A DNA stretch of 64,000 nt, taken from positions 1 through 64,000 of the forward strand of contig JACPJC010000006.1 of the NCBI GenBank assembly GCA_016187745.1, read 5' to 3'. The stretch is from Candidatus Iainarchaeum sp. GTDB lineage: Archaea; Iainarchaeota; Iainarchaeia; Iainarchaeales; JAXPJC01. Position numbers and translations under genes: made by a program. The notes under the pieces were generated by a model. The model did no database searches. It was not told where the DNA came from and was given only the letters and a program-made list of their open reading frames with translations. Below are positions 6,842 through 54,956 of this stretch, piece by piece; position 1 is the first letter of the stretch; every line of letters begins with the position of its first letter.

Positions 6842-7369
6842 CTATCTTATGTTTCTATACAGTTCAACAAAATACTTTTTAGTTCCTTCCTCAACTGCCG
6901 TTGAAATGCTCTTTATATAGAAAGTGGTTTTCAGGATGCTTTTTCCCTGCGCATCATAAAAGATTATATCCTCCCTTTCCCCGAATAAATTTGACGCAAT
7001 TTTGCCGCTGTTGGAATCATACAATTCAAAGAGGGCCTTTTCAATTCCTTCGGACAATGCGCCGCCCGCAAGGACCAATGTGTAGGAATTCCCGTTCCAA
7101 TCCTGCAGCCCGGAAGAGACTGTGGTTTGCTCTGCTTCTTGTTCTGCATTTAAGTCGTCAGCCTTGAAGGTGTTTGTATCCTGTGATCCAACTGCCGCAT
7201 TGTTCCCGTCAACTTGTTTGTTCTCATCGATTATATTGTTGTTTGAATCCGCAGGTGGCGAACCGCCATTTTCCAGGCCATCCGTTCCTAAATTCCGGTC
7301 TGCGCCAATTTTAACGCAGCCCGCAAGAAGCGCAAGCAGAACAATTGCAATAAATAAAATTCTTTTCAT
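6842..7369 (-). CDS. Putative lipoprotein
   Basis: MKRILFIAIVLLALLAGC signal peptide with lipobox. Confidence 0.75.
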   Translation of the reverse strand: MKRILFIAIVLLALLAGCVKIGADRNLGTDGLENGGSPPADSNNNIIDENKQVDGNNAAVGSQDTNTFKADDLNAEQEAEQTTVSSGLQDWNGNSYTLVLAGGALSEGIEKALFELYDSNSGKIASNLFGEREDIIFYDAQGKSILKTTFYIKSISTAVEEGTKKYFVELYRNIR

Positions 7370-7431
7370 AGGCCGGCACCTGCAATACATTGGTGCATAA
7401 TAATTAAACAACTTTCTAATGCAGTTATTTC

Positions 7432-9519
7432 ATGTGCGGCATAACCGGCTTTTTCAATTATGGGGGCGCGGAAAAACTTGCGGAGCGCGCGCTTGAGCTG
7501 ATGCATAATCGCGGAATAGACGCAAAAGGCATTTATGCCCCTGATTCCGAGAATGCGCTCGGGCACTGCCTGCATGCGGTTGTGGGATTTGTGAAGCAGC
7601 CGCTTGTTGGAAAGGGCGCGCTTGCTGCGAACTGCGAAATTTACAACTGGAAGGAATTGAATGTAAAATATAAATTTGGCGCGAAGAATGATGCGGAGCT
7701 TCTCCTTAAGCTGCTTGACAAAAAAGGCGCAAATGAAATAAAGCAGGTTCTTTCCGAACTGCACGGGACTTATGCCTTTGCCTATCTGCGCGATGGGAAA
7801 ATTGCGATTGCGCGGGATTTGATCGGGGTTAAGCCCCTGTGGTATGCGCTTGACGCTGATGGAAAATTCTGCTTTGCTTCGGAGAAGAAAGTCATTGAGG
7901 CGCTTGCAGGGCAGAATGCGCTTGAACTTAACCCGAGGGAAGCGCTCGTTTATGACATTAAAAGGCGCAAACTGGATTCTTTGAAAAGGGAATTTTTCAG
8001 ACTGGGAAAGGAAAATAAATTTAATCTGCAGCAGAATGCGGAAAAAATCAGGGAATTGCTCTCCAATGCTATGAAAATGCGCATCCCGGAGCGGAAATTC
8101 GGGCTGCTTTTTTCCGGGGGAATAGATTCCGCGCTGATTGCAGGGGCGCTCAAGGAAGGCAGGCAGAAATTCAGGTGCTATTTCGCATTTATTGGTGGGG
8201 ATTCAAGGCCGAAGGATCTGGAATATGCGCAAGGCGCCGCGAAGGCGCTTGGGATTGAATTGGAGCTCGTCAGGGTTGAAATGGATGAGTTTGAGAAGGA
8301 GCTTCCAAAAATAGTGAATCTCATTGAATCCGCAAACCCCACAAGGGTTGGCGTCGCTTCGGTGAATTACTTCGCGTGCAGGAAGGCGCATGCGGACGGC
8401 TGCAAGGTAATTTTTTCAGGATTGGGCGCTGATGAATTGTTTGCGGGATATGCGCGCTTCAAAGAGTCAAAAAACATAAATGCCGACTGCCTGAGCGCAT
8501 TGATGCAGATGCATGAGAACGACCTTTACAGGGATGATGTTGCCTCAATGGAGAATTCTGTTGAATTGAGACTGCCTTTCTTGGATTCTGAGCTGGCGGG
8601 GTTCGCGCTTAATGTGCCTGAGAAATTCAAAATAAATAAAAGCGGGAACAAGGCTGTGCTGCGCGAAATCGGGAAAGGAATTGGTTTGCCGAAGGAAATA
8701 TATGAGAGGAAAAAGCTTGCTGCGCAGTACGGGAGCAATTTTGACAGGGCAATAGAAAAGCTTGCAAGGAAGCACGGGCACAAAAGAAAATCGGAATTCC
8801 TTGCTAGTATGCTACATAATAAAAACCTGCGCCTGGGCGCGCTGTTCAGCTCCGGGAAAGACAGCAATTATGCGCTCTACGAGATGCAGAGGCAGAATTA
8901 CGGGATTGCCTGCCTGATTACAATAAAATCAAAGAACCCGGATTCTTACATGTTCCACAGCGCAAATATTGGAATTGCAAAACTGCAGGCGCAGGCGCTT
9001 GGAATTCCGATAATTGAAGTTGAAAGTGCGGGGGAGAAGGAAAATGAACTGGGGGATTTGGAAAGGGCGCTGAAAATTGCAAGGGATAAATTCAGAATAA
9101 ACGGGATTGTAACGGGAGCGATTGTGAGCAATTACCAGCGCAAAAGGATTGAGAATGCCGCGGATGAAAACGGATTGAGGGTGTTTTCCCCGCTGTGGCA
9201 AAAAAACCAGGAGCTTGAGCTGAAGGAAATTGTGGATTCAGGATTTCATTTTATCATAACAAAAATCGCGTGCGCAGGAATTGGAAAGGAGTGGCTGGGG
9301 AAGGAAATCGGAATTAAGGAAGCTGAGCAGCTGATTGCGCTGGGCAGGAAATCCGGATTCAATGCTGCTGGGGAAGGCGGGGAATATGAAACGCTTGTGC
9401 TGGACGCGCCGAATTTCAGGAAAAAAATTGTTATTGGGAAATATGAGATAAAAAGCACGGGCGAATTCTCGCACGAGCTGGTTATAAATTTCTCTTCTGC
9501 CACTCTTGCAAAAAAGTAA
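7432..9519 (+). CDS. Asparagine synthetase B-like amidotransferase fused to diphthine--ammonia ligase (Dph6)
   Basis: MCGI Ntn nucleophile, N.EIYN, LFSGGIDS, SG.GADELFAGY, ELRLPFLD; C-terminal LFSSGKDS, SYMFH, GEGGEYET. Confidence 0.9.
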   Translation: MCGITGFFNYGGAEKLAERALELMHNRGIDAKGIYAPDSENALGHCLHAVVGFVKQPLVGKGALAANCEIYNWKELNVKYKFGAKNDAELLLKLLDKKGANEIKQVLSELHGTYAFAYLRDGKIAIARDLIGVKPLWYALDADGKFCFASEKKVIEALAGQNALELNPREALVYDIKRRKLDSLKREFFRLGKENKFNLQQNAEKIRELLSNAMKMRIPERKFGLLFSGGIDSALIAGALKEGRQKFRCYFAFIGGDSRPKDLEYAQGAAKALGIELELVRVEMDEFEKELPKIVNLIESANPTRVGVASVNYFACRKAHADGCKVIFSGLGADELFAGYARFKESKNINADCLSALMQMHENDLYRDDVASMENSVELRLPFLDSELAGFALNVPEKFKINKSGNKAVLREIGKGIGLPKEIYERKKLAAQYGSNFDRAIEKLARKHGHKRKSEFLASMLHNKNLRLGALFSSGKDSNYALYEMQRQNYGIACLITIKSKNPDSYMFHSANIGIAKLQAQALGIPIIEVESAGEKENELGDLERALKIARDKFRINGIVTGAIVSNYQRKRIENAADENGLRVFSPLWQKNQELELKEIVDSGFHFIITKIACAGIGKEWLGKEIGIKEAEQLIALGRKSGFNAAGEGGEYETLVLDAPNFRKKIVIGKYEIKSTGEFSHELVINFSSATLAKK

Positions 9520-11125: not shown

Positions 11126-11374
11126 ATGTACGATGTCCTATTTACAGAAAAGGCCGAAAGGCAATTGAGAAAATTGGAGAAGCATGTCCGGGAAAGGATT
11201 ATTTCTGCATTGGAAAGGGCAAGGATAAGGCCTGAGGCGCATTTTCAGAAACTTGTCGGAGACAAGGCATACAAGCTAAGGGCAGGCGATTACAGGATAA
11301 TAGCTGACATACTGAGAGACAAACTTGTAATTCTGGTCCTTAAAGCCGGGCACAGAAGGAATATTTACAAATGA
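11126..11374 (+). CDS. relE: RelE/ParE-family toxin
   Basis: YKLRAGDYRII...GHRRNIY. Confidence 0.9.
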   Translation: MYDVLFTEKAERQLRKLEKHVRERIISALERARIRPEAHFQKLVGDKAYKLRAGDYRIIADILRDKLVILVLKAGHRRNIYK

Positions 11375-12559: not shown

Positions 12560-13009
12560 ATGGGATTGTTCAATTTTGGAATTGGCGGGATAGAACTTAG
12601 GCTTGAGAAATACGAATTTGCGCCCGGAGAGGCGATTAAAGGGCATGTTTCGCTGAAACTGAAAAAGCCGATAAAGGCGCGCAAACTGGGAATTGCGCTT
12701 CTTGGCTTGCAGGAAACCCATCAGCTGCGCTCTGGCCCGAGTCCAAGGCGGGAAAGCAATTATATTTTTAATTTTGAGAAGCCTTTGGATGGGGAAAAGG
12801 AATATCTGCAGGGGGAATATGATTTTGAGCTGAAGATTCCCGCAAATGTGCTTGAGGGATCTTATGGTTCAGGTGCGCTTGCTGCGGTTGCAAAAACTGC
12901 GCAGTTTCTTGGCGGGGCGCTTACAAACATTAAATGGTTTGTTGAGGCTTCTTTGGATATTCCAATGGGGCTTGATGTCAGAAAAAAAATTCAAATAAAT
13001 ATTGGATAA
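12560..13009 (+). CDS. SpoOM/arrestin-N-like Ig-fold protein
   Basis: L.K..F.PGE.IKG.V...Y.FE.KIP...W.VEA.LDIP..LDV. Confidence 0.65.
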   Translation: MGLFNFGIGGIELRLEKYEFAPGEAIKGHVSLKLKKPIKARKLGIALLGLQETHQLRSGPSPRRESNYIFNFEKPLDGEKEYLQGEYDFELKIPANVLEGSYGSGALAAVAKTAQFLGGALTNIKWFVEASLDIPMGLDVRKKIQINIG

Positions 13010-14310: not shown

Positions 14311-14976
14311 TTATTTTGCAACAAGCCTGAATTCTTCCGGCTTTAAGTAGCAATGCTCTTTTGTGTTCATAATTTTATATTTTGTAATTTCAATTTTCTT
14401 CTTGTAGAGTGGGGCGTCAAGCACTATTGTGTGGAATTCGCCGTTCTCCCCGCAAACATCTGTGCGGGTTTTTCCGCATGCGGATTTGAATTCCTGCAAA
14501 TTGCGCGCGGTTATTGTTTTGCCGACCCAGGATTTCTGCAGTTTTTCGGGAATTACGCAAGTGACCATCGGCATGAATTTTTTTGCTGCAAGCTCATTCA
14601 GGATTTTATTTGTTGGCATTCCCCAGAGCGGGGTGATTAATTCCAGGGGAAGGGGCTTAATCACCTTTTTCGTCCACTTCATTGCGGATTGGAGCCACAA
14701 ATCCCCGGTAACCAGCCCTTCAATCCGGTATTTCCCGATGAGCGTGCGGAGCGCTTTCCTGTAATCCTGCAGGTAGGGCTTGTTCGCATTGAAGAAGAAA
14801 TGCCTTATGCCGAGCGCCTTCGCCTGCAGCGCAATAAGCTTCTGCGGATGCGCCCTGAATTTCTTCCCGTCAAAGGTAATTGTGAGCAATGCAACAACTT
14901 CAATTCCTGATTCAATTGCCTTGTGCAGCGCAAGGTTTGAGTCCTTGCCCCCTGAGAACATCATTGCAGCGCGCAT
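14311..14976 (-). CDS. Diphthine--ammonia ligase family (Dph6/DUF71) PP-loop ATPase, second copy
   Basis: FSGGKDS.LA, QA.ALG, V.GD, PLW, D.CGENGEFHT.V.D.P. Confidence 0.88.
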   Translation of the reverse strand: MRAAMMFSGGKDSNLALHKAIESGIEVVALLTITFDGKKFRAHPQKLIALQAKALGIRHFFFNANKPYLQDYRKALRTLIGKYRIEGLVTGDLWLQSAMKWTKKVIKPLPLELITPLWGMPTNKILNELAAKKFMPMVTCVIPEKLQKSWVGKTITARNLQEFKSACGKTRTDVCGENGEFHTIVLDAPLYKKKIEITKYKIMNTKEHCYLKPEEFRLVAK

Positions 14977-15018
14977 AACTTTTATAATGGGTAGGAATAT
15001 AATCTTAAATGTGGTGCG

Positions 15019-15444
15019 ATGCAGTACAGGGAAGAAAACGGATTGGTAATTGCGCGCCTCTTTCCGGGGGAGGACCTTTTCAAGGCTACTGCGCAGGTTC
15101 TGCGCGAGCTTAAAATACAAACTGCGGTTGTGCTTTCGGGAATCGGAATGCTGAGGGATTTTGAGCTGAGCTATTTTATTGGAAAGGGGAATTATGGAAC
15201 TGAGAAATTCGGGAAGGCGCATGAGCTCTGCGCATTAAGCGGGCTGATATGCAAAAAGGAAATTGATGATTATTCATTCCACTTGCATGCGGTTCTTGCG
15301 GATGAGAATAAAAAGGCGATTGCCGGGCATCTTCCAAAGGGAACTGTTGAAGTTACGTGCGAGCTCGCGCTTCTGAAAAGCGGGATTGAGCTGAAGAGAA
15401 GGATTGAGGAAGGGAGCGGACTGAACGGGCTGTTTTTGGAATAA
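15019..15444 (+). CDS. PPC domain (DUF296) protein
   Basis: RL.PGEDL, SGIG.L, HLHAVL, GHL..G.V..T.E. Confidence 0.88.
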   Translation: MQYREENGLVIARLFPGEDLFKATAQVLRELKIQTAVVLSGIGMLRDFELSYFIGKGNYGTEKFGKAHELCALSGLICKKEIDDYSFHLHAVLADENKKAIAGHLPKGTVEVTCELALLKSGIELKRRIEEGSGLNGLFLE

Positions 15445-15478: not shown

Positions 15479-15988
15479 ATGCCTGGAAGGAAAATACTTT
15501 TTATTGGAATTCTGCTTATTGCGCTTTTTGTTCTGCTTATGGGCTGCGTGCAGGATGGGAATGGCACTGACACGAACAGCATTGCGCCAACTTCCATCAA
15601 GAGCTTTTCCAAAATGGAGAATGCGCAGGTTTGCATGGAGAATGGGAAGCCCGTTGTGAGGCTTTTCTCAACCACATGGTGCCCGCACTGCAAGTGGATA
15701 AAGGACGCGTTTGATTCGACCATGAAGGAATACACTGCACAGGGAAAAATCATTGCATACCACTGGGAGCTGGATACCGGGGATAACACGCTTACCCCTG
15801 AGGCTGAAGGCGCCGTGCCCGCTTCCGAATCCGCAATATACAAGCAGTTCAATCCCGAGGGAACTGTACCTACCTTTGTTTTCGGCTGCGAATACTACAG
15901 GATAGGGAATGCGTATGAATCGCAGAATGACTTGAAGGCGGAAATAGGGGAGTTCAAGGCGGTAATAGAGGAACTTCTGAAGGGATAA
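15479..15988 (+). CDS. Thioredoxin-like lipoprotein
   Basis: LLMGC lipobox; WCPHC; VPTFVFG. Confidence 0.85.
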   Translation: MPGRKILFIGILLIALFVLLMGCVQDGNGTDTNSIAPTSIKSFSKMENAQVCMENGKPVVRLFSTTWCPHCKWIKDAFDSTMKEYTAQGKIIAYHWELDTGDNTLTPEAEGAVPASESAIYKQFNPEGTVPTFVFGCEYYRIGNAYESQNDLKAEIGEFKAVIEELLKG

Positions 15989-26291: not shown

Positions 26292-28487
26292 ATGGCGCGA
26301 AAGGAAGATGTTGCGCAGATTGCGCAGAAGATGATGCACCGGCAGAATAACATACGCAACATTGGCACTGTCGCGCACATCGACCATGGGAAAACAACGC
26401 TTTCTGACAATCTTGTCGCAGCCGCGGGGCTTATAAGCTCGGAGCTTGCGGGGAAGCAGCAGTTCATGGACTATTATGAATTGGAGCAGGAGCGCGGAAT
26501 TACAATAAATGCGGCAAATGTTTCAATGGTCCATAATGTTAACGGGGAGGATTATCTGATCAATCTGATTGACACTCCGGGGCATGTTGATTTCGGGGGG
26601 GAGGTAATAAGGGCAATGCGCGCAGTTGACGGGGTCATTTTGGTAGTGGATTCTGTTGAGGGGGTAATGCCGCAGACGGAAACTGTAATAAGGCAGGCAT
26701 TGCGCGAGAAAGTAAAGCCGGTTCTTTTCATAAACAAGGTTGACAGGCTTGTGAATGAGCTGCAGCTTACGGAGCAGCAGATGCAGGAGCGCTTCATAAA
26801 AACAATAACGCAGGTAAATGCGCTGATAAAGAGAGGGGCAGCAGATGAGTTCAAGGAAAAATGGCAGGTTCGCGTTCAGGACGGAAGCGTAACATTCGGC
26901 TCCGCTTACAATAATTGGGCATTGAATTCTGACACGATTGCGGAAAACAAGATGGGCTTCAAGGAAGTCTATGAGTACTGCAAAAACGGCAAACAGAAGG
27001 AGCTTGCTCAGAAAACCAAGCTGCACTCCGCGGTTCTGGGAATGGTTGTAAAGCACCTGCCTTCCCCTGTGCAGGCGCAGAAATACAGGATTCCAACAAT
27101 CTGGACGGGGGATCCGGAAAGTGAAGAGGGCAAGGCAATGATGGGCTGCGACCCCAACGGGCCTGTGGCAATGATGGTAAATGACGTTACTGTTGACCCG
27201 CACGCGGGGGATGTCGCAACAGGAAGGATTTATTCCGGAACCATAAGGCGCGGAACCCTTGTAAAGCTTATAGGCATGCAGAAGGATGTAAGCGTGCAGC
27301 AGGTCTGCCTTTACATGGGCCCTGAAAGGATTACGGTTGATGAGATTCCCTCGGGGAATATCGCGGCTATTGTGGGAATAAGGGAAGTTTATGCGGGAGA
27401 AACAATCTCAACAGCGAAAATAAAGGAATTTGAAAGCTTCATGACTACTGTAGAGCCGGTAATGACTGTCAGCGTTGAGCCGAAATCAACAAAGGACCTT
27501 CCGAAACTTATTGAGGTTGTAAGGCAGATTTCAAAGGAAGACCCGAATGTCAAAGCTACACTAAACCAGGAGACGGGGGAGCATCTGCTTTCAGGCATGG
27601 GGGAACTGCATCTTGAAATCACTAAATACAGGATTGAGGTTGACCATAAGGTTCCCATTGAAGTTAGCACTCCGATTGTTGTTTACAAGGAAACAATTGC
27701 AAAGGGCTCCCCGACGCTCGAGGGAAAATCCCCGAACAAGCACAACAAGTTCAAGCTGCGCGTTGAGCCCATGGAAGAGGAAATCAGGCTGAAGCTTATT
27801 GAGGCAAGGCTGCAGGGAAAAGTTAGGGAAAAGGACAAGGAGATTGTCCCGAAATTAATGGATATTGGATTTACAAGGGACGAGGCAAAGAGCGCATGGG
27901 CAATACACAACAACAACATAATTATTGATGAATCCCGCGGTGTGCAGTATTTGAATGAAGTAAAGGAGCTTGTGATTCAGGGCTTTACTGATGCGATGAA
28001 TGAGGGGCCGCTGGCGAAGGAGCGCTGCATAGGGGTGAAGGTTTACATTGATGATGCCAATCTGCACGAGGACGCGATTCATCGCGGGCCGGCGCAGGTG
28101 CTTCCTGCGGTTACGCGCACAATATACGCGTGCATGCTTTCCGCGGACGCATTGCTGCTTGAACCGAAGCAAATCCTTACAATAAATGTGCCGCAGGATT
28201 ATATGGGCTCTGCAGCCAAGGAGCTGGGCGCTCGCAGGACGCAGATAAATGAAATGCGCACCGAGGGGGACACTGCACTCATAATTGCAAAGGCGCCGGT
28301 TAAGGAGCTTATTGGATTTTCGGCCGCAATAAGAAGCGCAACGCAGGGGCGCGCCGTATGGACCGCGGAATATGCGGGCTATGAGAAATTGCCTCGCGAA
28401 CTGCAGGCGCAGGTTGTAAGGGAAACAAGGCAGAGAAAGGGCATGGACATTGAAGTTAAGCCCTACCAGTTCTTCCTGGAATCGTAA
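26292..28487 (+). CDS. fusA: Elongation factor EF-2
   Basis: AHIDHGKTT, DTPGHVDF, NKVD; diphthamide loop DAIHRG intact. Confidence 0.98.
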   Translation: MARKEDVAQIAQKMMHRQNNIRNIGTVAHIDHGKTTLSDNLVAAAGLISSELAGKQQFMDYYELEQERGITINAANVSMVHNVNGEDYLINLIDTPGHVDFGGEVIRAMRAVDGVILVVDSVEGVMPQTETVIRQALREKVKPVLFINKVDRLVNELQLTEQQMQERFIKTITQVNALIKRGAADEFKEKWQVRVQDGSVTFGSAYNNWALNSDTIAENKMGFKEVYEYCKNGKQKELAQKTKLHSAVLGMVVKHLPSPVQAQKYRIPTIWTGDPESEEGKAMMGCDPNGPVAMMVNDVTVDPHAGDVATGRIYSGTIRRGTLVKLIGMQKDVSVQQVCLYMGPERITVDEIPSGNIAAIVGIREVYAGETISTAKIKEFESFMTTVEPVMTVSVEPKSTKDLPKLIEVVRQISKEDPNVKATLNQETGEHLLSGMGELHLEITKYRIEVDHKVPIEVSTPIVVYKETIAKGSPTLEGKSPNKHNKFKLRVEPMEEEIRLKLIEARLQGKVREKDKEIVPKLMDIGFTRDEAKSAWAIHNNNIIIDESRGVQYLNEVKELVIQGFTDAMNEGPLAKERCIGVKVYIDDANLHEDAIHRGPAQVLPAVTRTIYACMLSADALLLEPKQILTINVPQDYMGSAAKELGARRTQINEMRTEGDTALIIAKAPVKELIGFSAAIRSATQGRAVWTAEYAGYEKLPRELQAQVVRETRQRKGMDIEVKPYQFFLES

Positions 28488-32866: not shown

Positions 32867-33030
32867 GTTCATTTCTGTTCACATCCCTGCTTATTAACCT
32901 GCTCATTCGGTGCATTCGGCCATAAAAAAGGTGTTTTTTGGACATTTGCCTTGTTCATTCCTGTTCAGCCCCCTGCTTATTAACAGTTCATGTGCATATC
33001 TGGCTATGGAAAAAGTGGTTTTTGGGCATT
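32867..33030 (+). repeat. Imperfect ~80-bp tandem duplication of promoter and start of the surface-protein gene
   Basis: 32867-32946 ~ 32953-33030; shared GTTCAtt(t/c)ctGTTCA and CCCTGCTTATTAAC. Confidence 0.8.
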
Positions 33031-35777
33031 GGAAGACTGCAGCAACCTTTTTGTTTGTGTTGCTGGCAATTAGCTTTGCTTATGCCATAGATTTCAATAT
33101 TTTTTACATTGACGGCAATGCGGATAATGGCGGCTTGCCTGCTTTTTCATTTGTGAGAGACGGCAATCTTAGGATAGATTTGAATGTAAGGGACAATAAC
33201 TATGGTATATTACTTTTGGATTTAAATTATTCAACATCAAGATATACGTACGGAACGCCAATTGTTGATGATTTGAACCTCAACTCTTATGCAGGCTGCC
33301 AGGACAATAATTTCATTGATTCAACCCGATGCTCAGTGTATTTTGATATAGGCGCAATTGCAGACGGAAACTATTTTATAAGCGGTGCGGCAAGGGACAC
33401 TTTTGGGGGCGCAGGGTCTTTTGCCTATGATATTTCAGACAACAACTTCATGGTTGACAATACTGTTCCAATAACAACAGATGACGCAAATGCCGGATGG
33501 CAGAATTTTAATGCAAATGTAAGAATAACCTGCAATGATGGAAACGGCTCAAGCTGTACAATATGGGGAAGTGCTCTTAATTATTATAGGAAAGATACTG
33601 ATCTTTCAGCAGCGGTTTCATATGGGGCATGGCAAATATATAACTTATCCCCCATACCATTCACCGCGGACGGAAACTGGGCTTTGGACTATTACACAAT
33701 AGATAGGGCTGGAAATGCGGAAACAATAAAAACCACTTATGTGCTAATAGACAAAACATCCCCGGATATAAATATTGTCCAGCCTGCCGGAAACAGCACT
33801 TCAAGCAATCTCCTGTGGTTTGAGGTAAGCAAAGGATATGGCTCTGACATCAATGCAAATACAATAAAAGCAGACATAAATGGTGTAGCAAGCGACCTCA
33901 ATTTCTCACAACATTGTGTAGAAACAGGCGAAGGATACAAATGCTCATGGGCAGAATCAAGCCTTGCTTCGGGAAATGATTACAACTTGGCTGTTTTTGC
34001 AAAAGACAATGTTGAATGGAGAGCAACAGCACAAAGGGTATTTACATATACAATTCCTGCGCCGGGCTCGTTGCCTGACATAAACATTAACTATATTGAC
34101 GGCCATGCAGACAGTAATGCCTTGCCTACCTTCTCATATGCGAGAGATGGCTTAATCACCATAGATTTCAATGTTGCAGATGTAACACCTGCCTCGTTTA
34201 TTTTGGACATGAATTACTCCACTTCAAATGTAAATGGAACTGGCGCTGCAATAGCTGATGATTTGAACCTTGACTCCTATGCGGGATGCGATGACACAAA
34301 CTTCTTGGATTCAACGCACTGCAGCATTGATTGGAATGCAATGGGCATTGCTGACGGGAATTACTATATTCTTGTATCACTGAGAAGCAGCCCGGATACT
34401 GCAATTGAATCATCCGATAATAATTTCTTAATTGACAACACAAAACCGGTTATTGCATTTACTTTGCCCGCGTCCGGAGAAATGATCACAAATACATTTA
34501 CAGTTAAATTTGATATAAATGATTCTGGCGGAAGCGGAGTGGACGGCGATAATGTTTTCTTTGATACAAATGCCACAGATATAAATACTGCAATTGTGAT
34601 TGGAAGCGGCTCATGGGATATGAATTATATTGCTACATATACGGTCTCAAATGTTCCGGATGGTGATTATAATGTAACAATACGTGCAGTGGATAAGGCT
34701 GGAAACCAGGCTGATCAGAACACTGCATTAATTCATTATGACACAAATGCCCCAAGCGTAAGCATTGAGTCTGTTTCAACAAGTTCGGATTCTGCAACAA
34801 TAACCTATTCGGGCTTTGATTCCGGCTCTGGAATCAAGGAGTACTGGATTAGGCTTGATTATGAAGAATCCCTAAGTGGAAGCTGGGAGAGTAATGGAAC
34901 TGCAACAAGCAAAACCTATAGCGGCTTGAGCGCAGGCTCATACACCTTCTATTTAAAAGCAACTGATTATGCTGATTCAAACAGCCCTGATGCCAATACC
35001 AATTTCACTATAAGCGCCAGCAATGGAGGGAACCCCGGAGGGGGGCCTGGTGGAGGTCCAGGCGGAGGCCCCAGCCCGCCCACCCCGACTCTGCAGTGCA
35101 CTGATACAGACAACAGCGATGATTTATTCGCTTTTGGATACGCCTATGCAAAAAGAGGGAATTCGCCAATGACGCTTTTGCAGCTGGATAAGTGCTCGGA
35201 CAAGGACAACCCAAATGAAATGAAATATGATATCATAGAGGCAATATGCATACACGAGCAGCCGAAAGGCGCTCCAAGAAATTGCCCGGAGAATTATCAT
35301 TGCGGAACATCCCCACAAACCATAAATGACACAGCATATCTGCTTGCTGCATGCGTGCCTGATGAAAATGCAGAAGAGGCAGGCGAAGAGGGGCCGTTTG
35401 AAAGCTTCAGCGAGCAGGTGGCTGAAAAACTTGCAGAACTGAGGGAAAATTTAAGTGAAAAACTGGCTGAATTTATGGAAGGCAATCCTATCATAAGCGG
35501 CCTGGTTTCGCTTGTTCTGGAAAAGAGGGCAATAGCCTCGGAAAGGGAGAGGGTAATAAGGAACTTTAATGTAAGTGATGCTGAGATAGTGGAGGGGGTT
35601 GAAGAAATTGCCTCGGAAGAAATCAATTTGGAGCAGTTTGAATCTGAGCTAAAGCTTTTCTCGGGGCACTTCAAAAAGCACCTTTATCTCGCGCTGAAGG
35701 ACGGCTCAGAAGAAGAAAAAAAATTGCTTTACAAACAGATAAAAAGCTATCTAAGCGAGGTAGAAAGGGAGTCATGA
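33006..35777 (+). CDS. Large secreted Ig-like repeat surface protein
   Basis: Signal peptide; D.AGN Ig motifs; duplicated ~120-aa domain; Gly/Pro linker; Cys-rich module. Confidence 0.8.
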   Translation: MEKVVFGHWKTAATFLFVLLAISFAYAIDFNIFYIDGNADNGGLPAFSFVRDGNLRIDLNVRDNNYGILLLDLNYSTSRYTYGTPIVDDLNLNSYAGCQDNNFIDSTRCSVYFDIGAIADGNYFISGAARDTFGGAGSFAYDISDNNFMVDNTVPITTDDANAGWQNFNANVRITCNDGNGSSCTIWGSALNYYRKDTDLSAAVSYGAWQIYNLSPIPFTADGNWALDYYTIDRAGNAETIKTTYVLIDKTSPDINIVQPAGNSTSSNLLWFEVSKGYGSDINANTIKADINGVASDLNFSQHCVETGEGYKCSWAESSLASGNDYNLAVFAKDNVEWRATAQRVFTYTIPAPGSLPDININYIDGHADSNALPTFSYARDGLITIDFNVADVTPASFILDMNYSTSNVNGTGAAIADDLNLDSYAGCDDTNFLDSTHCSIDWNAMGIADGNYYILVSLRSSPDTAIESSDNNFLIDNTKPVIAFTLPASGEMITNTFTVKFDINDSGGSGVDGDNVFFDTNATDINTAIVIGSGSWDMNYIATYTVSNVPDGDYNVTIRAVDKAGNQADQNTALIHYDTNAPSVSIESVSTSSDSATITYSGFDSGSGIKEYWIRLDYEESLSGSWESNGTATSKTYSGLSAGSYTFYLKATDYADSNSPDANTNFTISASNGGNPGGGPGGGPGGGPSPPTPTLQCTDTDNSDDLFAFGYAYAKRGNSPMTLLQLDKCSDKDNPNEMKYDIIEAICIHEQPKGAPRNCPENYHCGTSPQTINDTAYLLAACVPDENAEEAGEEGPFESFSEQVAEKLAELRENLSEKLAEFMEGNPIISGLVSLVLEKRAIASERERVIRNFNVSDAEIVEGVEEIASEEINLEQFESELKLFSGHFKKHLYLALKDGSEEEKKLLYKQIKSYLSEVERES

Positions 35778-35856: not shown

Positions 35857-36711
35857 ATGAATCTGGCTAAATGCTGTTCAATCCTGTTCATAGTATTATA
35901 CATAATGGGAAGTGCACTTGCGGTTTCTGCAGATTATGATGTGAAAATATCTGAAAATGGCAATTCTCTTGTTATAATTAATATTTCAGGAAAGGACTGC
36001 TTTGATCTGCCATTGCCATTGGATGTTGCCGAGCCGAATGTAACTGGCGCCTTGTATGTATATTCAGAAAAGGGAGTTGAAGTGTGCATTGGCTCTACTG
36101 AAAGCGCGATAATTGTTTACAGGTCTGCACTGCTTACAGAGAAGACAGGGGGCTGGACATTCAAAATGGATTTGCCAGCTCTTGAAAAAGCATCTGCAAA
36201 GATCAATTTTCCGCAGAATGCCATTGTCACAAAAACAACCCCTTCTGCAAAAATTTGGCAGGCAGATGGCGCAAAATATGCAATTTACAATATCGGAAAT
36301 GCAACTTCAATAGAGGCAAAATACAAATTTGGAACTGCTGAAACTCCCGCCGCTGCAACTACCGGGTTTTACTTCCTTGCTCAAAACTATGGGCTCTACG
36401 GCATCCTGCTGCTTGTTGTAATAGCTGCTGCCCTTTCATACTTCTTTTATTTCAGCAAGAAGCTGGCAAAAATAACTCCGGGGCAGGAAAATGTTGCCAA
36501 AACCCTTACAGAGAATGAGGCAAAGGTTGTCAAAATGCTTCTTGAGAATAAAGGCAGCATTAAAAGAAACCAGCTTGAAAGGAGTTCCGAGCTTGCAAAG
36601 TCAAGCCTTGCTGCTGTGCTCTACAACCTTGAGAACAAGAATATTGTCGGGGTTGACAAGAGCAATACCGTGCATCATGTAAAACTGAGCGATTGGTTCA
36701 AAGGGCTTTAA
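35857..36711 (+). CDS. Membrane-spanning protein with C-terminal winged HTH (putative one-component regulator)
   Basis: Signal peptide, extracellular beta domain, TM helix, then LTENE..VV..L....G......L.......KSSL...L..LE.K. Confidence 0.75.
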   Translation: MNLAKCCSILFIVLYIMGSALAVSADYDVKISENGNSLVIINISGKDCFDLPLPLDVAEPNVTGALYVYSEKGVEVCIGSTESAIIVYRSALLTEKTGGWTFKMDLPALEKASAKINFPQNAIVTKTTPSAKIWQADGAKYAIYNIGNATSIEAKYKFGTAETPAAATTGFYFLAQNYGLYGILLLVVIAAALSYFFYFSKKLAKITPGQENVAKTLTENEAKVVKMLLENKGSIKRNQLERSSELAKSSLAAVLYNLENKNIVGVDKSNTVHHVKLSDWFKGL

Positions 36712-38250: not shown

Positions 38251-38499
38251 ATGACTCATTTGACAACAATCCAATTGGACAAGTCTACAAAAAATCAGCT
38301 TGACAAGTTGAAGGAATACAAAAGAGAGACCTATGACGAGGTAGTGAAAAATCTGGTTGAGGTTGCTGAAATTCTAAAAAAAGAGCCCGAATTAAAAGAA
38401 GAAGTGTTGGAAGAAATTGCTGAAGCGAGAAAACATATCAGAATGGGCAAAGGACTGACAACTAAACAGCTAATTGCTGAGCTGGGCATAAAAATATGA
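38251..38499 (+). CDS. RelB-like antitoxin
   Basis: TTIQL...ETYDEVV...GKG...LG; homolog of 10907..11125. Confidence 0.8.
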   Translation: MTHLTTIQLDKSTKNQLDKLKEYKRETYDEVVKNLVEVAEILKKEPELKEEVLEEIAEARKHIRMGKGLTTKQLIAELGIKI

Positions 38500-38759
38500 C
38501 ATATTCTGTAATCTGGTCGCCCAAAAGCAAAGAGAAACTCGAGAAATTTGAAAAGGATGTTGCAGCAAGAATAATCAGGAAGGTTTCAGACATTAGTGAA
38601 AATCCTGAGCCGTATCTTATAAAACTTACTAATTCTGATGCATTTCGCTTAAGAGTCGGGGATTATAGGGTGGTCGTTGACCTGCTGAAAGACAAAAAAG
38701 AACTGCATGTAATTACTCTCGGGCACAGAAGAAACATTTACAAAGAGTTTGGTAGATAG
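38496..38759 (+). CDS. relE: RelE/ParE-family toxin
   Basis: FRLRVGDYRVV...GHRRNIY. Confidence 0.9.
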   Translation: MTYSVIWSPKSKEKLEKFEKDVAARIIRKVSDISENPEPYLIKLTNSDAFRLRVGDYRVVVDLLKDKKELHVITLGHRRNIYKEFGR

Positions 38760-39317: not shown

Positions 39318-41204
39318 ATGGCAGGATTTGGGGGAGTCAGGAAGTTTGGGCAGTATGGCGTGATTCTGCTAGTTCTGGTTCTGTTTGGCACTTACGCAAG
39401 CGCAGAGCCTTTCTGCGGGGAAGTAAGTTTTTCAGTTTATCCCATAAGCATAACCTCAGGAACATCAATTGACAGGACGTTTGCGCTGCAGAACAATTCT
39501 GCCGAGGGGTTTTACATTGATGATTTCAATGCCTATGACATTGATGCCGATTTTAATGTGATTAAATTGAGCAATGACTCTTATGCCGGCCCGAATGCAA
39601 CTGCAAGCTTATACATAAATATTTCCGCCTCTTCGGGGGTAAGCTCAAAAACCTCCAGCGCATATGCGAAAGTGAACGGGCATTTTGCCTCAGGGAAGGC
39701 TTGCGATTACAATGCGCTTGGGGAGAAGACCTTTGGAATTACAATTACAGGGGGAATTGTCGCAGTGGATGCGGAATGCACGAAAGTGAAAATTAGCGCG
39801 CATGCGGTAGGCATGGGAGAAAATTCTTCCGTTGCCGAAACATTCACCCTGCAGAACAATTCCTCGCAGAATTTCTATATTGATTCATTCATGGTTGATG
39901 AGAATTCAAATGATGTTTTTGCAATCGAGCAGGGATATGGGGATGTTGCAAATGCGAACGGGACAGCAGACCTGAGCCTGAAGGTTGAGTCCTATTCCAC
40001 AAGCGAAAACAAGACCGCAACAGCGTATGCGAAAGTCGCGGGGCATTTCACCTCCGGAACGCAGTGCAATTCAAATGCGATCGGGGAAACCGGCTTCAGC
40101 ATTTATGTTGCGGGAAGCGCAAGCACAAACTGCAATGATTTCCTGCTGTCAGTCCCTTCAGAAAAAAGGATGCTGAATTCTGCGGAAATTGGGATTGCCG
40201 CTGAAAATCCTACTCAGAGCTCAGCCACAATAACAATTTCAGGAGGCAATATCGGGGTGAATCAGAGCACCGTAAGCGTGCCTGCGGGGGAAACAATAAG
40301 CAAAACGCTCACGCTCAGCAATCTTGAGGGGGATGAGGCATGGCTTGCTTATGATGTTATATTGGAGAACTGCAATATCCCTTCAGGAATCACGCACATA
40401 GTGAAGGGCGCGGATTACGTTGAAGTTGCACATTACAATTCCGCAGTTGAGATTGAGGATGAGGCTAATGTGAAAGTGGAACTGAAAAACAATTCCCCGG
40501 ACGCAAAGCAGTTTGCGCTTGCAATAACAGGATTGCCCGCGGATTGGGAAGTGCAGTATCTGCAGGGCTCGCTGGAAGGGGAGGAAACGCGCGCAGTTGT
40601 TTTGGGGGTTAGGCAGAAGAATGCCGTTTTCGGGAATTCCTATGCCGCAAAGCTTGTCCTGAGCTATGATTCAGCGCAGGTTGAGAGGGATATTGAATTC
40701 AGCGCGATGCGCTCAGGGCAGATTGAGAATGCAAGCATACAGACAAGCGTTGTGCAGAAGGACGATGAAAAGGGCAGCTACGAGGTAAGTGTTGTAGTTG
40801 AAAATGGTTCAGCAAGCGGAATTTCAGGCGCAATAGAAATTGAAGTTCCGGGAAACTGGGAAGTGGAAGGCGCAAAGGAGATTGCTGTTCCCGCAGGAGG
40901 GGCCGCGCAGACAACACTGACTGTAATTCCTGACAAGGCGCAGAAGGCAGGGGAAATAGGAAGCGTCAGTTTTGTTGCGAGGGATGGGAGGAAACTTGAG
41001 GAATTTGTGAGCTTCACCCCAAAAGGGGTTGCGGCATCCGTAGCATTTGCGGCATTTGCAACAAATGCTGTGTTTTTCGGCTTCATTGCAATCATTGTAG
41101 TTGCAATCATCTTCGTTCACAGGGGCAGGATTTCAGGAACAAGGAGGGAAAGCGTGGAATGGCCCTATAATTGGGGGAAAGAAGCCGGAGAAAAACCTTT
41201 TTAA
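39318..41204 (+). CDS. Surface glycoprotein with Ig-like (NEW3-like) domains and C-terminal TM anchor
   Basis: Signal peptide; duplicated FxLQNNS...FYID.F...AYAKV.GHF.SG..C domain; many N-x-S/T; C-terminal TM. Confidence 0.8.
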   Translation: MAGFGGVRKFGQYGVILLVLVLFGTYASAEPFCGEVSFSVYPISITSGTSIDRTFALQNNSAEGFYIDDFNAYDIDADFNVIKLSNDSYAGPNATASLYINISASSGVSSKTSSAYAKVNGHFASGKACDYNALGEKTFGITITGGIVAVDAECTKVKISAHAVGMGENSSVAETFTLQNNSSQNFYIDSFMVDENSNDVFAIEQGYGDVANANGTADLSLKVESYSTSENKTATAYAKVAGHFTSGTQCNSNAIGETGFSIYVAGSASTNCNDFLLSVPSEKRMLNSAEIGIAAENPTQSSATITISGGNIGVNQSTVSVPAGETISKTLTLSNLEGDEAWLAYDVILENCNIPSGITHIVKGADYVEVAHYNSAVEIEDEANVKVELKNNSPDAKQFALAITGLPADWEVQYLQGSLEGEETRAVVLGVRQKNAVFGNSYAAKLVLSYDSAQVERDIEFSAMRSGQIENASIQTSVVQKDDEKGSYEVSVVVENGSASGISGAIEIEVPGNWEVEGAKEIAVPAGGAAQTTLTVIPDKAQKAGEIGSVSFVARDGRKLEEFVSFTPKGVAASVAFAAFATNAVFFGFIAIIVVAIIFVHRGRISGTRRESVEWPYNWGKEAGEKPF

Positions 41205-53143: not shown

Positions 53144-53589
53144 CTGTGCGAAAAAGGAAAAGGAAAAACAAGCTGCGCGGTTCGCGCACTTTCGGAACCG
53201 GAAATACCAAGCATAAGCGCGGCTCAGGATGCAGGGGCGGAAAGGGAAGGGCCGGAAGCCACAAGCACAAGTATTCCAAATATTACGATACGTTTGGAGT
53301 AACGCTGAGGCTGAAGCCAAGGAAACTCAAGGGGAATGAAATGAACCTCTGGCAGGTTGATGAAAACATCGAAGGCTGGCTTTCCGGAAAAATGATTGAG
53401 AAGAGCGGCGACGCTTACGTAATTGACTGCAAAAAGCTCGGAATAAGGAAAATACTTTCAAAGGGGAATCTTGCAAGGAAAGTTATCCTGAGGAATGCGC
53501 AGCTAAGCGAAAAGGCAAGGGAAAAAATAATCGCATCAAAGGGAATCATTGAGGAAGCAGGGGAGAAAAAGGAGAAGGGTGAAAAATGA
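53140..53589 (+). CDS. rpl15: 50S ribosomal protein L15
   Basis: RGSRT.G.G..K..RG.G..GG.G.AG..KH. Confidence 0.95.
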   Translation: MTVRKRKRKNKLRGSRTFGTGNTKHKRGSGCRGGKGRAGSHKHKYSKYYDTFGVTLRLKPRKLKGNEMNLWQVDENIEGWLSGKMIEKSGDAYVIDCKKLGIRKILSKGNLARKVILRNAQLSEKAREKIIASKGIIEEAGEKKEKGEK

Positions 53590-54956
53590 GCATCCTTGAT
53601 GTTTTTGAGCCAATTTACAAGCTGCTTCCTGAGGTGAAGAGCCCGGAAGTAAAGCCGGCGCTTAAGCGCAGGCTCATGTGGAGTGCGCTGGCGCTCCTGC
53701 TGTTTTTCATAATGGGCAATATTACTGTCTATGGGATTGACCTTTCAAGAAGCCTGGGGGGCAATCTCGCGGCATTTGAGCTCATACTTGCAAGCAAGAT
53801 TGGAAGCCTTATAACTGTGGGAATAGGCCCGATAGTGCTCGCATCAATCATACTGCAGATGCTTGTGGGGGGCAAAATAATAAACATAGACCTTTCAAAC
53901 CCAAAGGACAGGGCGCGCTTCACGAGCATGCAGAAGCTGTTTGGGATCGTGCTTTGCTTCTTCGAGGCATTTGTATATTCCGCATTCGGGTTTTTGGTTC
54001 CAGATTCGGGAATGCTTCTGCCTGTAATCCTGCAGATAGCATTCGGCGCAATAATCCTGATATATCTGGATGAAGTTGTTTCAAAGTATGGAATAGGCTC
54101 TGGAATCGGATTGTTTATTGCAGGCGGAGTCGCAGGCTCAATAGGATGGCGCATTTTCGCCCCTTACCTTGTCACAAACGTTGGAATAGTTGAGGGCCTG
54201 CTGCTGCAGATTGTTGGGGAGGCGGTGAAGGGAAGCCTGCTCAATGCGTTTGTCCTGTCGGTTCCGATAATATTTGTGATTGTGATTTTTCTCGTGGTTG
54301 TTTTTGCGGAGGGAATGCACGTAAATATCCCGATTACCGTAGGGAGGAGCGGGGCGACATCGCGCTTCCCCGTGAAATTCCTCTATGTGAGCAACCTTCC
54401 AGTTATACTTGCAATGGCGCTGTATGCGAACCTGCAGATGTGGGCGATAGCGGGCGCAAATATCCCAATACTCGGAACAATGCTCGGCGCAGTAAGCTAT
54501 GCAACTGCAATCCCGAGGGTCGGGGGAACAGCGCTCTTTGAGGCGATTTTCCTGCAGGGGCTTTCGGGAATTGTGATTGCTGAAATCCTGCATGCGGTGC
54601 TTTATATTGCGGTCTTTGTTGTCATTTGCGTTGTTTTCGGAAAATTCTGGGTGGAGATGGCAGGGCAGGGGCCTGCGGCAATTTCAGAGCAATTGCAGAA
54701 AGCCGGAATGTCTATTCCTGGATTCAGGAAGGACCCGCGCATCATAAGGCAGATTTTGGATAGGTACATTCCGCCAATTACAATCCTTGGGAGCGCATTT
54801 GTTGCGCTGCTTGCGGGGCTTGCGGATTTGACCGGAGCACTTGGGAGCGGGACGGGAATACTTCTGACTGTTGGAATTGTTTACAGGCTTTATGAGGAAC
54901 TTGCAAGGGAGCAGCTCATGGAAATGCACCCGTTGCTTGGGAGACTTTTCAAATGA
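53586..54956 (+). CDS. secY: Preprotein translocase SecY
   Basis: GIGPIV.ASII.Q, SKYGIGSGIGLFI, YVSN.PVI, IPGFR, SGTGILL. Confidence 0.97.
   Translation: MSILDVFEPIYKLLPEVKSPEVKPALKRRLMWSALALLLFFIMGNITVYGIDLSRSLGGNLAAFELILASKIGSLITVGIGPIVLASIILQMLVGGKIINIDLSNPKDRARFTSMQKLFGIVLCFFEAFVYSAFGFLVPDSGMLLPVILQIAFGAIILIYLDEVVSKYGIGSGIGLFIAGGVAGSIGWRIFAPYLVTNVGIVEGLLLQIVGEAVKGSLLNAFVLSVPIIFVIVIFLVVVFAEGMHVNIPITVGRSGATSRFPVKFLYVSNLPVILAMALYANLQMWAIAGANIPILGTMLGAVSYATAIPRVGGTALFEAIFLQGLSGIVIAEILHAVLYIAVFVVICVVFGKFWVEMAGQGPAAISEQLQKAGMSIPGFRKDPRIIRQILDRYIPPITILGSAFVALLAGLADLTGALGSGTGILLTVGIVYRLYEELAREQLMEMHPLLGRLFK

Follow-up and report, generated by a model that had tools for sequence, protein, structure and literature searches.

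A 64,000-nucleotide stretch of archaeal DNA (positions 1 to 64,000 of contig JACPJC010000006.1, Candidatus Iainarchaeum sp.; hereafter the window) contains at 33006..35777 a gene for an exported, multi-domain immunoglobulin (Ig)-like surface protein, in which the tripeptide Asp-x-Asn (D-x-N) recurs throughout the extracellular part. The original prediction, made from the sequence of the window, was that this tripeptide is a lineage-specific signal for N-glycosylation or another modification, or else a repeated Ca2+-binding or Asx-turn motif, and the question raised by the locus is what maintains it. D-x-N is a short linear motif selected in exported proteins of this Diapherotrites-type lineage, and derives neither from composition nor from one fold or one family. 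It may serve as an N-linked glycosylation sequon with Asp at position −2, an explanation that is tentatively favored here, although at somewhat less than even confidence.

In the focal protein, 37 D-x-N were found (overlapping count), with 36 of them lying within residues 28-708, in agreement with the figure of about 36 that had been counted by hand for the extracellular part. The expectation from composition (80 D and 80 N) is 6.9; shuffled sequences gave a mean of 6.94 (standard deviation 2.41, z = 12.5), and a count of 37 was reached in 0 of 5000 shuffles—that is, the excess survived the shuffling check named in the original prediction. The controls in the same protein, namely N-x-D (3, with a shuffle mean of 7.0), D-x-D (5), N-x-N (9), and D-x-x-N (8), were all at or below expectation. 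The canonical sequon N-x-S/T was not enriched either (15 versus 13.4 expected), and Ser or Thr at N+2 was present in 7 and absent in 30 of the 37 D-x-N, as had been stated for most of them. These counts are partly non-independent, because modules A (residues 28-160) and B (residues 356-490) are paralogues with 53% of residues identical, and of the 10 D-x-N in module A, 7 align with D-x-N in module B.

The excess extends to relatives of the protein. Among 75 word-indexed homologues, the ratio of observed to expected D-x-N (O/E) was 2.5-8.5 in 65 and 1.5 or less in the other 10. Pooled, the 65 rich homologues contain 2219 D-x-N versus 489 expected (4.5-fold), with z-scores for the individual proteins of about 4.5 to 20. 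When residue pairs at spacings of 1-4 were compared in these 65 proteins, D-x-N was the strongest by far, the next at spacing 2 being C-x-D (2.3-fold). E-x-N is depleted (404 versus 625 expected). That D and N are merely abundant, each accounting for 8-10% of residues, is the simplest explanation of such a pattern, but it is virtually inconceivable in view of the shuffling results, the z-scores, and the counts of N-x-D, which has the same composition and lies at or below expectation everywhere.

Two further exported proteins in the window show the excess. The small lipoprotein encoded at 6842..7390 contains 8 D-x-N, exactly as first reported, versus 0.98 expected (0 of 2000 shuffles; no N-x-D), all of them in residues 31-127 and mostly in a low-complexity linker past the lipobox that would, from its composition only, be disordered. 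In the thioredoxin-like lipoprotein (15479..15988), the DGN and DTN described earlier are both present, giving 2 D-x-N versus 0.33 expected (shuffle p 0.04). The remaining open reading frames (ORFs) of the window, when pooled, contain 38 D-x-N versus 27.7 expected. The bias is not universal across exported proteins: the product of 39318..41204 has 4 D-x-N versus 1.7 expected (p 0.08) and 13 N-x-S/T versus 6.8, and that of 35857..36711 has no D-x-N versus 0.57 expected.

A wider comparison of exported and cytoplasmic proteins was made with 39 archaeal loci from one genome scan together with the window, in which 484 ORFs of at least 90 aa were called. The scan pattern itself held D-x-N, so the loci are a biased sample, which demonstrates that the trait exists there and does not estimate its frequency, and the export classes follow a crude hydrophobicity rule of our own rather than a trained predictor. 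The 251 cytoplasmic-class ORFs contain 119 D-x-N versus 120.6 expected (0.99-fold), and those of the window 27 versus 22.6, bearing out the initial impression that cytoplasmic proteins are unbiased. Exported-class ORFs without homology to the focal protein (88 in number) contain 445 versus 128.8 (3.46-fold), and 32 homologues of the focal protein in the loci 1067 versus 262.6 (4.1-fold). The 88 D-x-N versus 37.1 expected (2.4-fold) in 58 multi-pass ORFs come from three large ectodomain proteins with C-terminal anchors, and in true polytopic proteins D and N are too scarce for inside and outside to be compared. Across the ORF classes, N-x-D was observed at 0.77-1.0-fold and N-x-S/T at 1.09-1.31-fold of expectation, the latter with 1.15-1.17-fold in exported versus 1.09-fold in cytoplasmic proteins.

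When homologues were excluded more widely (39 removed by means of phmmer and two hidden Markov models (HMMs)), the 70 small exported ORFs left were found to contain 95 D-x-N versus 34.0 expected (2.8-fold, Poisson 8e-18) and 35 N-x-D (1.0-fold); averaged over 61 small exported families, the figures are 62.2 versus 25.5. Pilin-like, thioredoxin-like, coiled-coil, and lipoprotein families are represented among these ORFs. Individual examples outside the Ig-module family are pilin-like proteins adjoining paired T2SSF genes (5 versus about 1), exported thioredoxin-like proteins (10 versus 1.6 and 6 versus 1.0), a YadA-head repeat protein (19 versus 5.9), and an Asn-rich exported protein, L011:5751-6686 (17 versus 3.4).

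The genomic setting of some of these proteins is recurrent. A cluster conserved at four loci (L002:12065-21309, L004:2026-11235, L010:13560-22764, and L026:14720-23792) comprises two T2SSF (PilC/FlaJ-like) genes, a gene for a pilin-like protein (class III-type signal, 5-6 D-x-N), genes for 2-3 small exported proteins, and one for a D-x-N-rich protein of about 1000 aa, and adjoins a homologue of the focal protein. This arrangement suggests a place in the pilus for some D-x-N-rich proteins, either as components or as adhesins borne on it. One contig from Micrarchaeota encodes both an exported beta-helix protein (L001:6195-9143, minus strand) that has a class III-type signal and 30 N-x-S/T versus 21 expected, and a focal-protein homologue with 61 D-x-N; both Asn contexts can therefore coexist on one contig. 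The idea of two systems, with D-x-N varying inversely with N-x-S/T, was rejected: among 55 exported proteins, the Spearman coefficient was −0.03 for total N-x-S/T, and when only N-x-S/T lacking D at −2 were counted it was −0.49, a value that follows largely from arithmetic.

Whether the motif is a property of the fold can be judged from distant relatives. In a HMMER search of a representative library with residues 28-358, 2520 representatives matched at E ≤ 1e-3, and the 125 new proteins among the best 150 of those matches were bimodal, with O/E at 1.5 or less in 53, at least 2 in 71, and in between in one. The named D-x-N-poor proteins come from Elusimicrobia, Fictibacillus, an entry named only "bacterium", Chloroflexota, and Aciduliprofundum/Thermoplasmata archaea, and the named D-x-N-rich ones from Diapherotrites, Iainarchaeum, ainarchaeum, Micrarchaeota, one Altiarchaeales, and one Heimdallarchaeaceae, the last two being single proteins from possibly mis-binned sequences. 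Because the poor homologues are bacterial or from Thermoplasmata and the rich ones belong to particular archaeal lineages, the trait belongs neither to the fold nor to Archaea as a whole. The DPANN label originally attached to it is broadly right, with the best support for Diapherotrites/Iainarchaeum.

The same conclusion can be drawn within a single domain. An HMM of the OmpL47-type domain was built from query residues 150-255, and 1412 domain copies were collected from the retrieved proteins; copies with more than 30% gaps, or from proteins with O/E 1.5-2.5, were dropped. The remaining copies carry 4.09 D-x-N each in rich proteins (320 copies) versus 0.12 in poor proteins (745 copies). The core positions—hydrophobic strand residues, D-x-A-G-N, and D-x-T-x-P—are common to both classes. 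Five column pairs, by contrast, hold D and N at 53-75% in the rich class (one N at 41%) and T, P, K, R, Y, E, or S in the poor class. Because poor copies of the same domain fill those columns with other residues, these alignments indicate that D-x-N has been superimposed on variable positions, probably at the surface, and that the fold itself can do without it.

Nor does the motif mark one local structure. In the AlphaFold2 (AF2) model of the focal protein, the 22 motifs in confident parts comprise 7 that are all strand, 7 that are all coil, and 8 at boundaries, with many at or just before strand starts. In the single-sequence model of L011:5751-6686, which is of modest confidence, 13 of 17 motifs lie in predicted helices, including all 9 motifs in blocks with a predicted local distance difference test (pLDDT) score of at least 65, and 17 of the 22 Asp in this protein belong to D-x-N. 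An Asx turn, or any other single local structure, is disfavored by these mixed contexts and by the unbiased cytoplasmic ORFs.

The motif residues are conserved between orthologues. In 31 orthologue pairs of 40-89% identity (overlapping pairs, counted in both directions), the motif Asp was kept in 408 of 473 comparisons (86%) and the motif Asn in 393 of 473 (83%), versus 716 of 1073 (67%) for Asp outside the motif, 690 of 1222 (56%) for Asn outside it, and 59% for the remaining residues. Within the motif, the x residue was kept in 66%, no better than average, and the whole motif in 79%. In the comparison with the 87%-identical relative P0001, all 71 of 71 motif Asn are kept. By this comparison, D-x-N is under purifying selection, because D and N outside the motif are lost more often.

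These data bear on the possibility that D-x-N is an inherited structural feature, namely a conserved surface or strand-start element of a beta-sandwich family that expanded massively in DPANN, and that descent, duplication, and a D/N-rich composition account for the counts. Such an origin would be consistent with the approximately 15 D-x-N positions conserved in the first 250 residues of the family consensus, with the positions common to both modules, with the retention of the motif between orthologues, and with its frequent location at strand starts; the bulk of the raw excess in the loci also comes from large Ig-domain proteins, and half of the small exported families lack an excess. It nevertheless appears fairly unlikely, because the excess is found in unrelated families too (pilin-like, thioredoxin-like, helical, and lipoprotein-linker) and persists in small, non-homologous exported ORFs in which N-x-D is at expectation. 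Furthermore, copies of the OmpL47-type domain in other lineages fold without D-x-N, the secondary-structure context is mixed, and a structural pairing of D with N would not obviously forbid N-x-D.

Relative to background, the surroundings of the motif at 2216 sites show enrichment of F, G, and L at the x position, with Pro at 0.10-fold and Asp at 0.14-fold. At N+1, Y, H, I, F, and V are favored and D, N, E, and P avoided; at N+2, M, H, F, S, L, and T are favored and K, D, and R avoided. Asp is depleted at all positions from −4 to +4 (0.14-0.64-fold), including N+1 (0.18-fold), N+2 (0.39-fold), and positions −1, −2, and −4 from the Asp (0.55-, 0.49-, and 0.38-fold), and Glu is at 0.3-0.6-fold throughout. 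Asp stands at −2 of 5601 of the 15540 Asn (36%) in a set of 131 rich proteins. Ser or Thr at N+2 follows 1460 of these 5601 (26.1%) versus 20.3% of other Asn (odds ratio 1.39, p 1.6e-16), and Pro at N+1 follows 79 of 5601 (1.4%) versus 3.8% of other Asn (odds ratio 0.36, p 9e-19), a 2.7-fold lower frequency.

The depletion of acidic residues is difficult to reconcile with cation binding or surface chemistry, in which the Asp carboxylate and the Asn carbonyl at i and i+2 would bind Ca2+, Mg2+, or mineral or host surfaces, stabilizing or gluing surface proteins in ion-rich waters. In its favor, both D and N commonly act as Ca2+ ligands, the excess is confined to the outside of the cell, and the focal protein weakly matches the NCBIfam model Ca_tandemer, a Ca2+-stabilized repeat-containing adhesin, under the cut-off (30.2 versus 50 bits); its inter-domain D-N-T-x-P junctions also presumably resemble the Ca2+-binding linkers of tandem Ig adhesins. 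Known Ca2+ loops, however, need at least three close oxygen ligands (EF-hand-like D-x-[DN]-x-[DN]-G, D-x-D-x-D-G, D-x-N-x-D, and cadherin D-x-N-D-N), and no such clustering is seen around D-x-N. The density of about one site per 20 residues is also far above the number of sites at domain junctions, bacterial homologues, including environmental ones labeled by NCBI as metagenome-assembled genomes, lack the motif in the same domain, and nonspecific electrostatics would not tell D-x-N from N-x-D or E-x-N. Cation binding is accordingly quite improbable, and the Ca2+-binding or Asx-turn alternative of the original prediction has lost ground on three counts: the depletion of acidic residues, the absence of a single structural context, and the lack of bias in cytoplasmic proteins.

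A linear motif read by an enzyme is the explanation to which the evidence points, because D-x-N is directional, specific for Asp rather than Glu, export-specific, independent of fold, restricted to a lineage, and conserved, with Pro barred at x. It is proposed that, after translocation, a membrane-bound or extracellular enzyme would read the Asp at −2 and act on the Asn. The best candidate act would be N-linked glycosylation by the oligosaccharyltransferase (OST) of the lineage itself, AglB: the −2 Asp would add binding energy, as for bacterial PglB, and Ser or Thr at +2 would be helpful and not required. Pili, adhesin-like Ig-domain proteins, and lipoprotein linkers would thereby be very densely coated with glycans.

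An AglB of the lineage is encoded at L035:5166-7103 (Pfam STT3, 75.9 bits; AglB_core, 40.8 bits) and contains the motifs FDPY, EED, SVGEE, and WWDEGHW. At least 116 relatives of at least 560 aa, among 120 listed and mostly named Diapherotrites, keep the catalytic motifs FD-x-Y, E-E/D-D, (S/T)VGEE, WWD-(E/Y/Q)-GHW, and DNRN. A changed sequon pocket, which had been suggested as a place to look, was not observed: the WWD motif is intact and a DK-like motif is kept. Lys321 is invariant in the at least 116 Diapherotrites-type AglBs. A profile alignment with yeast Stt3 pairs the catalytic Glu with E310 and places yeast D362 at position 320, one residue from Lys321; an excerpt of PMC7226087 equates yeast D362 with R331 of PglB, which binds the −2 Asp. 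Lys321 as the reader of the −2 Asp is a lead suggested by alignment, not a test. In a search of the PDB with the AglB profile, PglB (3rce) matched at E 8e-4, outside the best five alignments displayed, and the 111-aa EL5 region of AglB gave only a chance match to a nitric oxide reductase.

With respect to the genes around AglB, the region L035:161-7103 contains AglB and a glycosyltransferase family 4 (GT4, AglH-like) gene directly beside the gene for a D-x-N-rich protein of 1029 aa. AglB at this locus itself has no D-x-N versus 1.2 expected. No AglB was found in 38 of the 68 called ORFs of the window that were scanned, multi-pass ORFs included and 53586-54956 and the ribosomal-protein block left out. 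Among 39 multi-pass ORFs of at least 250 aa in the loci and the window, AglB and GT4 were the only glycosylation genes.

Several observations weigh against the sequon explanation. In solved OSTs, the WWD and DK-like motifs bind the +2 hydroxyl (excerpt of PMC7226087); the intact motifs in AglB leave the 74% of D-x-N without Ser or Thr at +2 unexplained, because a classical OST with a WWD pocket that binds this hydroxyl would be expected to ignore most D-x-N. The match of Lys321 comes from one profile alignment, to yeast Stt3 and not to PglB itself, with a two-residue gap nearby, and is off by one. Glu at −2, which PglB accepts, is depleted, and Pro at N+1 is reduced, not excluded. The distribution is uneven: of the small exported families in which more than 0.2 D-x-N would be expected, 16 lie above and 15 below expectation, a subtilase (L023:7393-10023) has no D-x-N versus 3.1 expected, and the Micrarchaeota protein L001:6195-9143 has 3 versus 2.6 yet is rich in N-x-S/T. 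The strong positional conservation would fit structural or binding roles equally well, and the biased sampling of loci and the crude export classes described above count on the same side. Finally, we infer from sequences only that the Asn in D-x-N is modified at all, that it carries a glycan, and that AglB attaches this glycan.

On balance, the sequon proposed in the original prediction is strengthened by the export specificity, directionality, and structure independence of the motif, by its absence from the same domain in bacteria and Thermoplasmata, and by its conservation and sequon-like side rules, and is weakened by an intact WWD pocket facing 74% of sites without Ser or Thr. More specific, and rather doubtful, is the claim that Asp-x-Asn without a +2 Ser or Thr would be the acceptor code of Diapherotrites-type DPANN at about one site per 20 residues, with AglB reading the −2 Asp through Lys321, in which case it would be the archaeal equivalent of the bacterial D/E-x-N-x-S/T sequon and possibly related to the source of that sequon.

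The pocket and the weak dependence on +2 Ser or Thr would be easier to reconcile with a different enzyme or partner—that is, another glycosyltransferase, hydroxylation, methylation, cross-linking, or docking to a host or partner protein of these symbiotic archaea. Whatever supports a conserved linear motif that has a direction and is specific to exported proteins applies equally to these, and the Asp-initial three-residue motif of Bacteroidota offers a precedent for a non-OST reading (excerpt of PMC8550257). A different enzyme or partner is nonetheless unlikely: no candidate was found in adjoining genes among the window neighbors and the 39 multi-pass ORFs scanned, and the exclusion of Pro and the preference for +2 Ser or Thr resemble OST sequons.

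Comparison with known systems places D-x-N closest to, and yet distinct from, the bacterial sequon D/E-X1-N-X2-S/T. As in that sequon, the Asp stands two residues before the Asn, the sites are in exported proteins, and Pro is disfavored at X1 (0.10-fold); at X2, from which the sequon excludes Pro, it is reduced and not absent. In Campylobacter lari PglB, the basic residue R331 reads the −2 Asp (excerpt of PMC7226087), and the invariant Lys of the Diapherotrites AglBs lies next to the position that the profile alignment pairs with the equivalent yeast residue. PglB requires Ser or Thr at +2, however, which is present in 26.1% of D-x-N (7 of 37 in the focal protein), and takes either D or E at −2, whereas here D is enriched 4.5-fold and E is depleted. 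The organisms here are also archaea with an STT3/AglB-like enzyme (SVGEE, WWD-E-GHW, DNRN), the site density is far higher, and the glycan is predicted from sequences.

The lineage is like other archaea in that its AglB has the catalytic D, DxD/E-type, SVSE/TIXE-type, and WWD motifs of the enzymes (AglB/STT3) that use N-x-S/T, and some exported proteins of these genomes are rich in N-x-S/T. It differs in that N-x-S/T is enriched only 1.15-1.17-fold in exported proteins, versus 3.5-4.5-fold for D-x-N, and no −2 preference of AglB is described in excerpts of PMC7226087 and PMC11407970. The best precedent for a lineage-specific short sequon recognizable from sequence statistics is the general O-glycosylation of Bacteroidota, in which a phylum-wide (D)(S/T)(A/I/L/V/M/T) motif is found on exported proteins (excerpt of PMC8550257). 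That motif is O-linked to Ser or Thr, bacterial, and served by another enzyme system, so the resemblance is one of logic only. According to older literature, glycosylation of Asn-2 in the S-layer protein of Halobacterium salinarum reportedly does not need a +2 hydroxy residue. This Asn-2 is N-glycosylated with its own glycan and lipid carrier (excerpt of PMC11407970); it is a single site in one haloarchaeal protein, with no −2 Asp rule. With Ca2+-stabilized tandem Ig-like adhesins (Ca_tandemer; Big_13/Big_3), the focal protein shares a chain of the same kind of Ig-like domain, but bacterial members have few D-x-N per domain (0.12 versus 4.09 here), and clusters of acidic residues are scarce near D-x-N.

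Neither D-x-N enrichment nor a rule for Asp at −2 in Archaea was found described in the full-text literature searched, including excerpts of PMC7226087, PMC8993221, and PMC11407970, with most subscription journals outside the search. If the Asn is modified, D-x-N would be the first lineage-specific N-linked sequon in Archaea and would give the first clue to the surface decoration of uncultivated DPANN symbionts. Prediction of glycosylation sites in archaeal metagenomes would then change, because scanning for N-x-S/T would miss most sites, and the finding would bear on how the bacterial requirement for an acidic −2 residue arose. The ratio of D-x-N to N-x-D in exported proteins would also be a simple statistic for tracing the trait and for finding the enzyme by phylogenetic profiling. 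Even without modification, it still calls for an explanation that one tripeptide, in one direction only, accounts for a third of the Asn in hundreds of surface proteins and is missing where the same domains occur elsewhere.

Features of the window discussed in the text, with positions in the window
Feature	Position	Strand	Remarks
Gene for the focal exported multi-domain Ig-like surface protein	33006..35777	+	ORF, 923 aa; 37 D-x-N
Signal peptide region, residues 1-27 (...SFAYA / IDFN)	33006..33086	+	Hydrophobic helix 2-23 in AF2 model
Module A, residues 28-160, beta-sandwich, 10 D-x-N	33087..33485	+	No Pfam match; pLDDT 80-90
OmpL47-type / Big_3-like domain, residues ~150-255	33453..33770	+	Used for comparison of rich and poor copies
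Module B, residues 356-490, 9 D-x-N	34071..34475	+	Paralogue of module A
Big_13/Big_3_3 and Y_Y_Y Ig-like domains, residues ~493-669	34482..35012	+	Pfam; low AF2 confidence at 480-578
Gly/Pro-rich linker, Cys-rich stretch, and long predicted helical C-terminal region (helices 798-922)	35022..35777	+	Sequence and AF2
Small lipoprotein (lipobox ...LLAGC)	6842..7390	−	8 D-x-N, nt 7010..7300; weak LPAM_1 match
Thioredoxin-like lipoprotein	15479..15988	+	DGN and DTN immediately after lipobox Cys
Exported CARDB/NPCBM_assoc-like protein	39318..41204	+	Low D-x-N excess, many N-x-S/T

The architecture of the focal protein is that of a chain of Ig-like domains. The Pfam families Big_3_3 (43.0 bits, cut-off 27), Y_Y_Y (36.1, cut-off 26.6), and Big_13 (31.2, cut-off 27) were all matched above the curated cut-off, as was the NCBIfam OmpL47-type barrel domain (barrel_OmpL47; 43.8, cut-off 40), and the full-length equivalog Lepto_OmpL47 was not reached (44.7 bits versus a cut-off of 250). 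The signal cleavage site was assigned without a dedicated predictor and is tentative. The AF2 model, built with 19 aligned sequences, shows a chain of beta-sandwiches with pLDDT 80-90 over residues 30-350 and lower values elsewhere (mean 62). A Foldseek search with this model returned generic Ig/FN3 chains only, at TM 0.1-0.2, and was uninformative on ion sites, and a PDB sequence search with the extracellular part gave no match at E ≤ 1. The C-terminal region contains a single D-x-N (DEN, residue 786). Residues 673-923 comprise a (GGGP)n/Pro-rich linker, a Cys-rich stretch of about 90 aa, and about 125 residues of long, Glu/Lys-rich predicted helices, with no clear transmembrane segment and no known sorting signal.

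Upstream of the focal gene are genes for archease, an uncharacterized protein, and RpiB, and downstream are genes for a membrane helix-turn-helix protein and RtcB; no glycosylation gene was found among the scanned neighbors. The gene directly downstream (35857..36711, plus strand) encodes an N-terminal signal-like segment, a middle part of about 150 aa, a transmembrane segment, and a C-terminal TrmB/MarR-like winged helix, and its product looks like a membrane-tethered transcription regulator.

Elsewhere in the window, the gene at 7432..9519 (plus strand), back to back with the D-x-N-rich lipoprotein gene, encodes a 695-aa fusion of GATase_7 and Asn_synthase to a Diphthami_syn_2 domain, and a second, stand-alone Diphthami_syn_2 protein is encoded 5 kb away (14311..15222, minus strand). 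Elongation factor 2 (EF-2; 26292..28487, plus strand; 731 aa) is intein-free and 70-72% identical to proteins named Candidatus Diapherotrites archaeon, which assigns the window to a DPANN archaeon of the Diapherotrites/Iainarchaeum type. Its closest relative, P0220, is 96% identical over 95% of the query and has 1245 aa with intein/LAGLIDADG Pfam domains, which several other Diapherotrites EF-2 proteins (about 1220-1280 aa) also contain. Two ParE-family toxin genes are present, one at 11126..11374 (plus strand) and one in the pair 38251..38499 / 38496..38759 (plus strand), where it overlaps by 4 bases with an upstream DUF7557 gene, whose product is likely an antitoxin. A 149-aa protein encoded at 12560..13009 (plus strand) matches Arrestin_N (E 5e-7, 30.2 bits versus a cut-off of 24.9), an uncommon finding in an archaeon.

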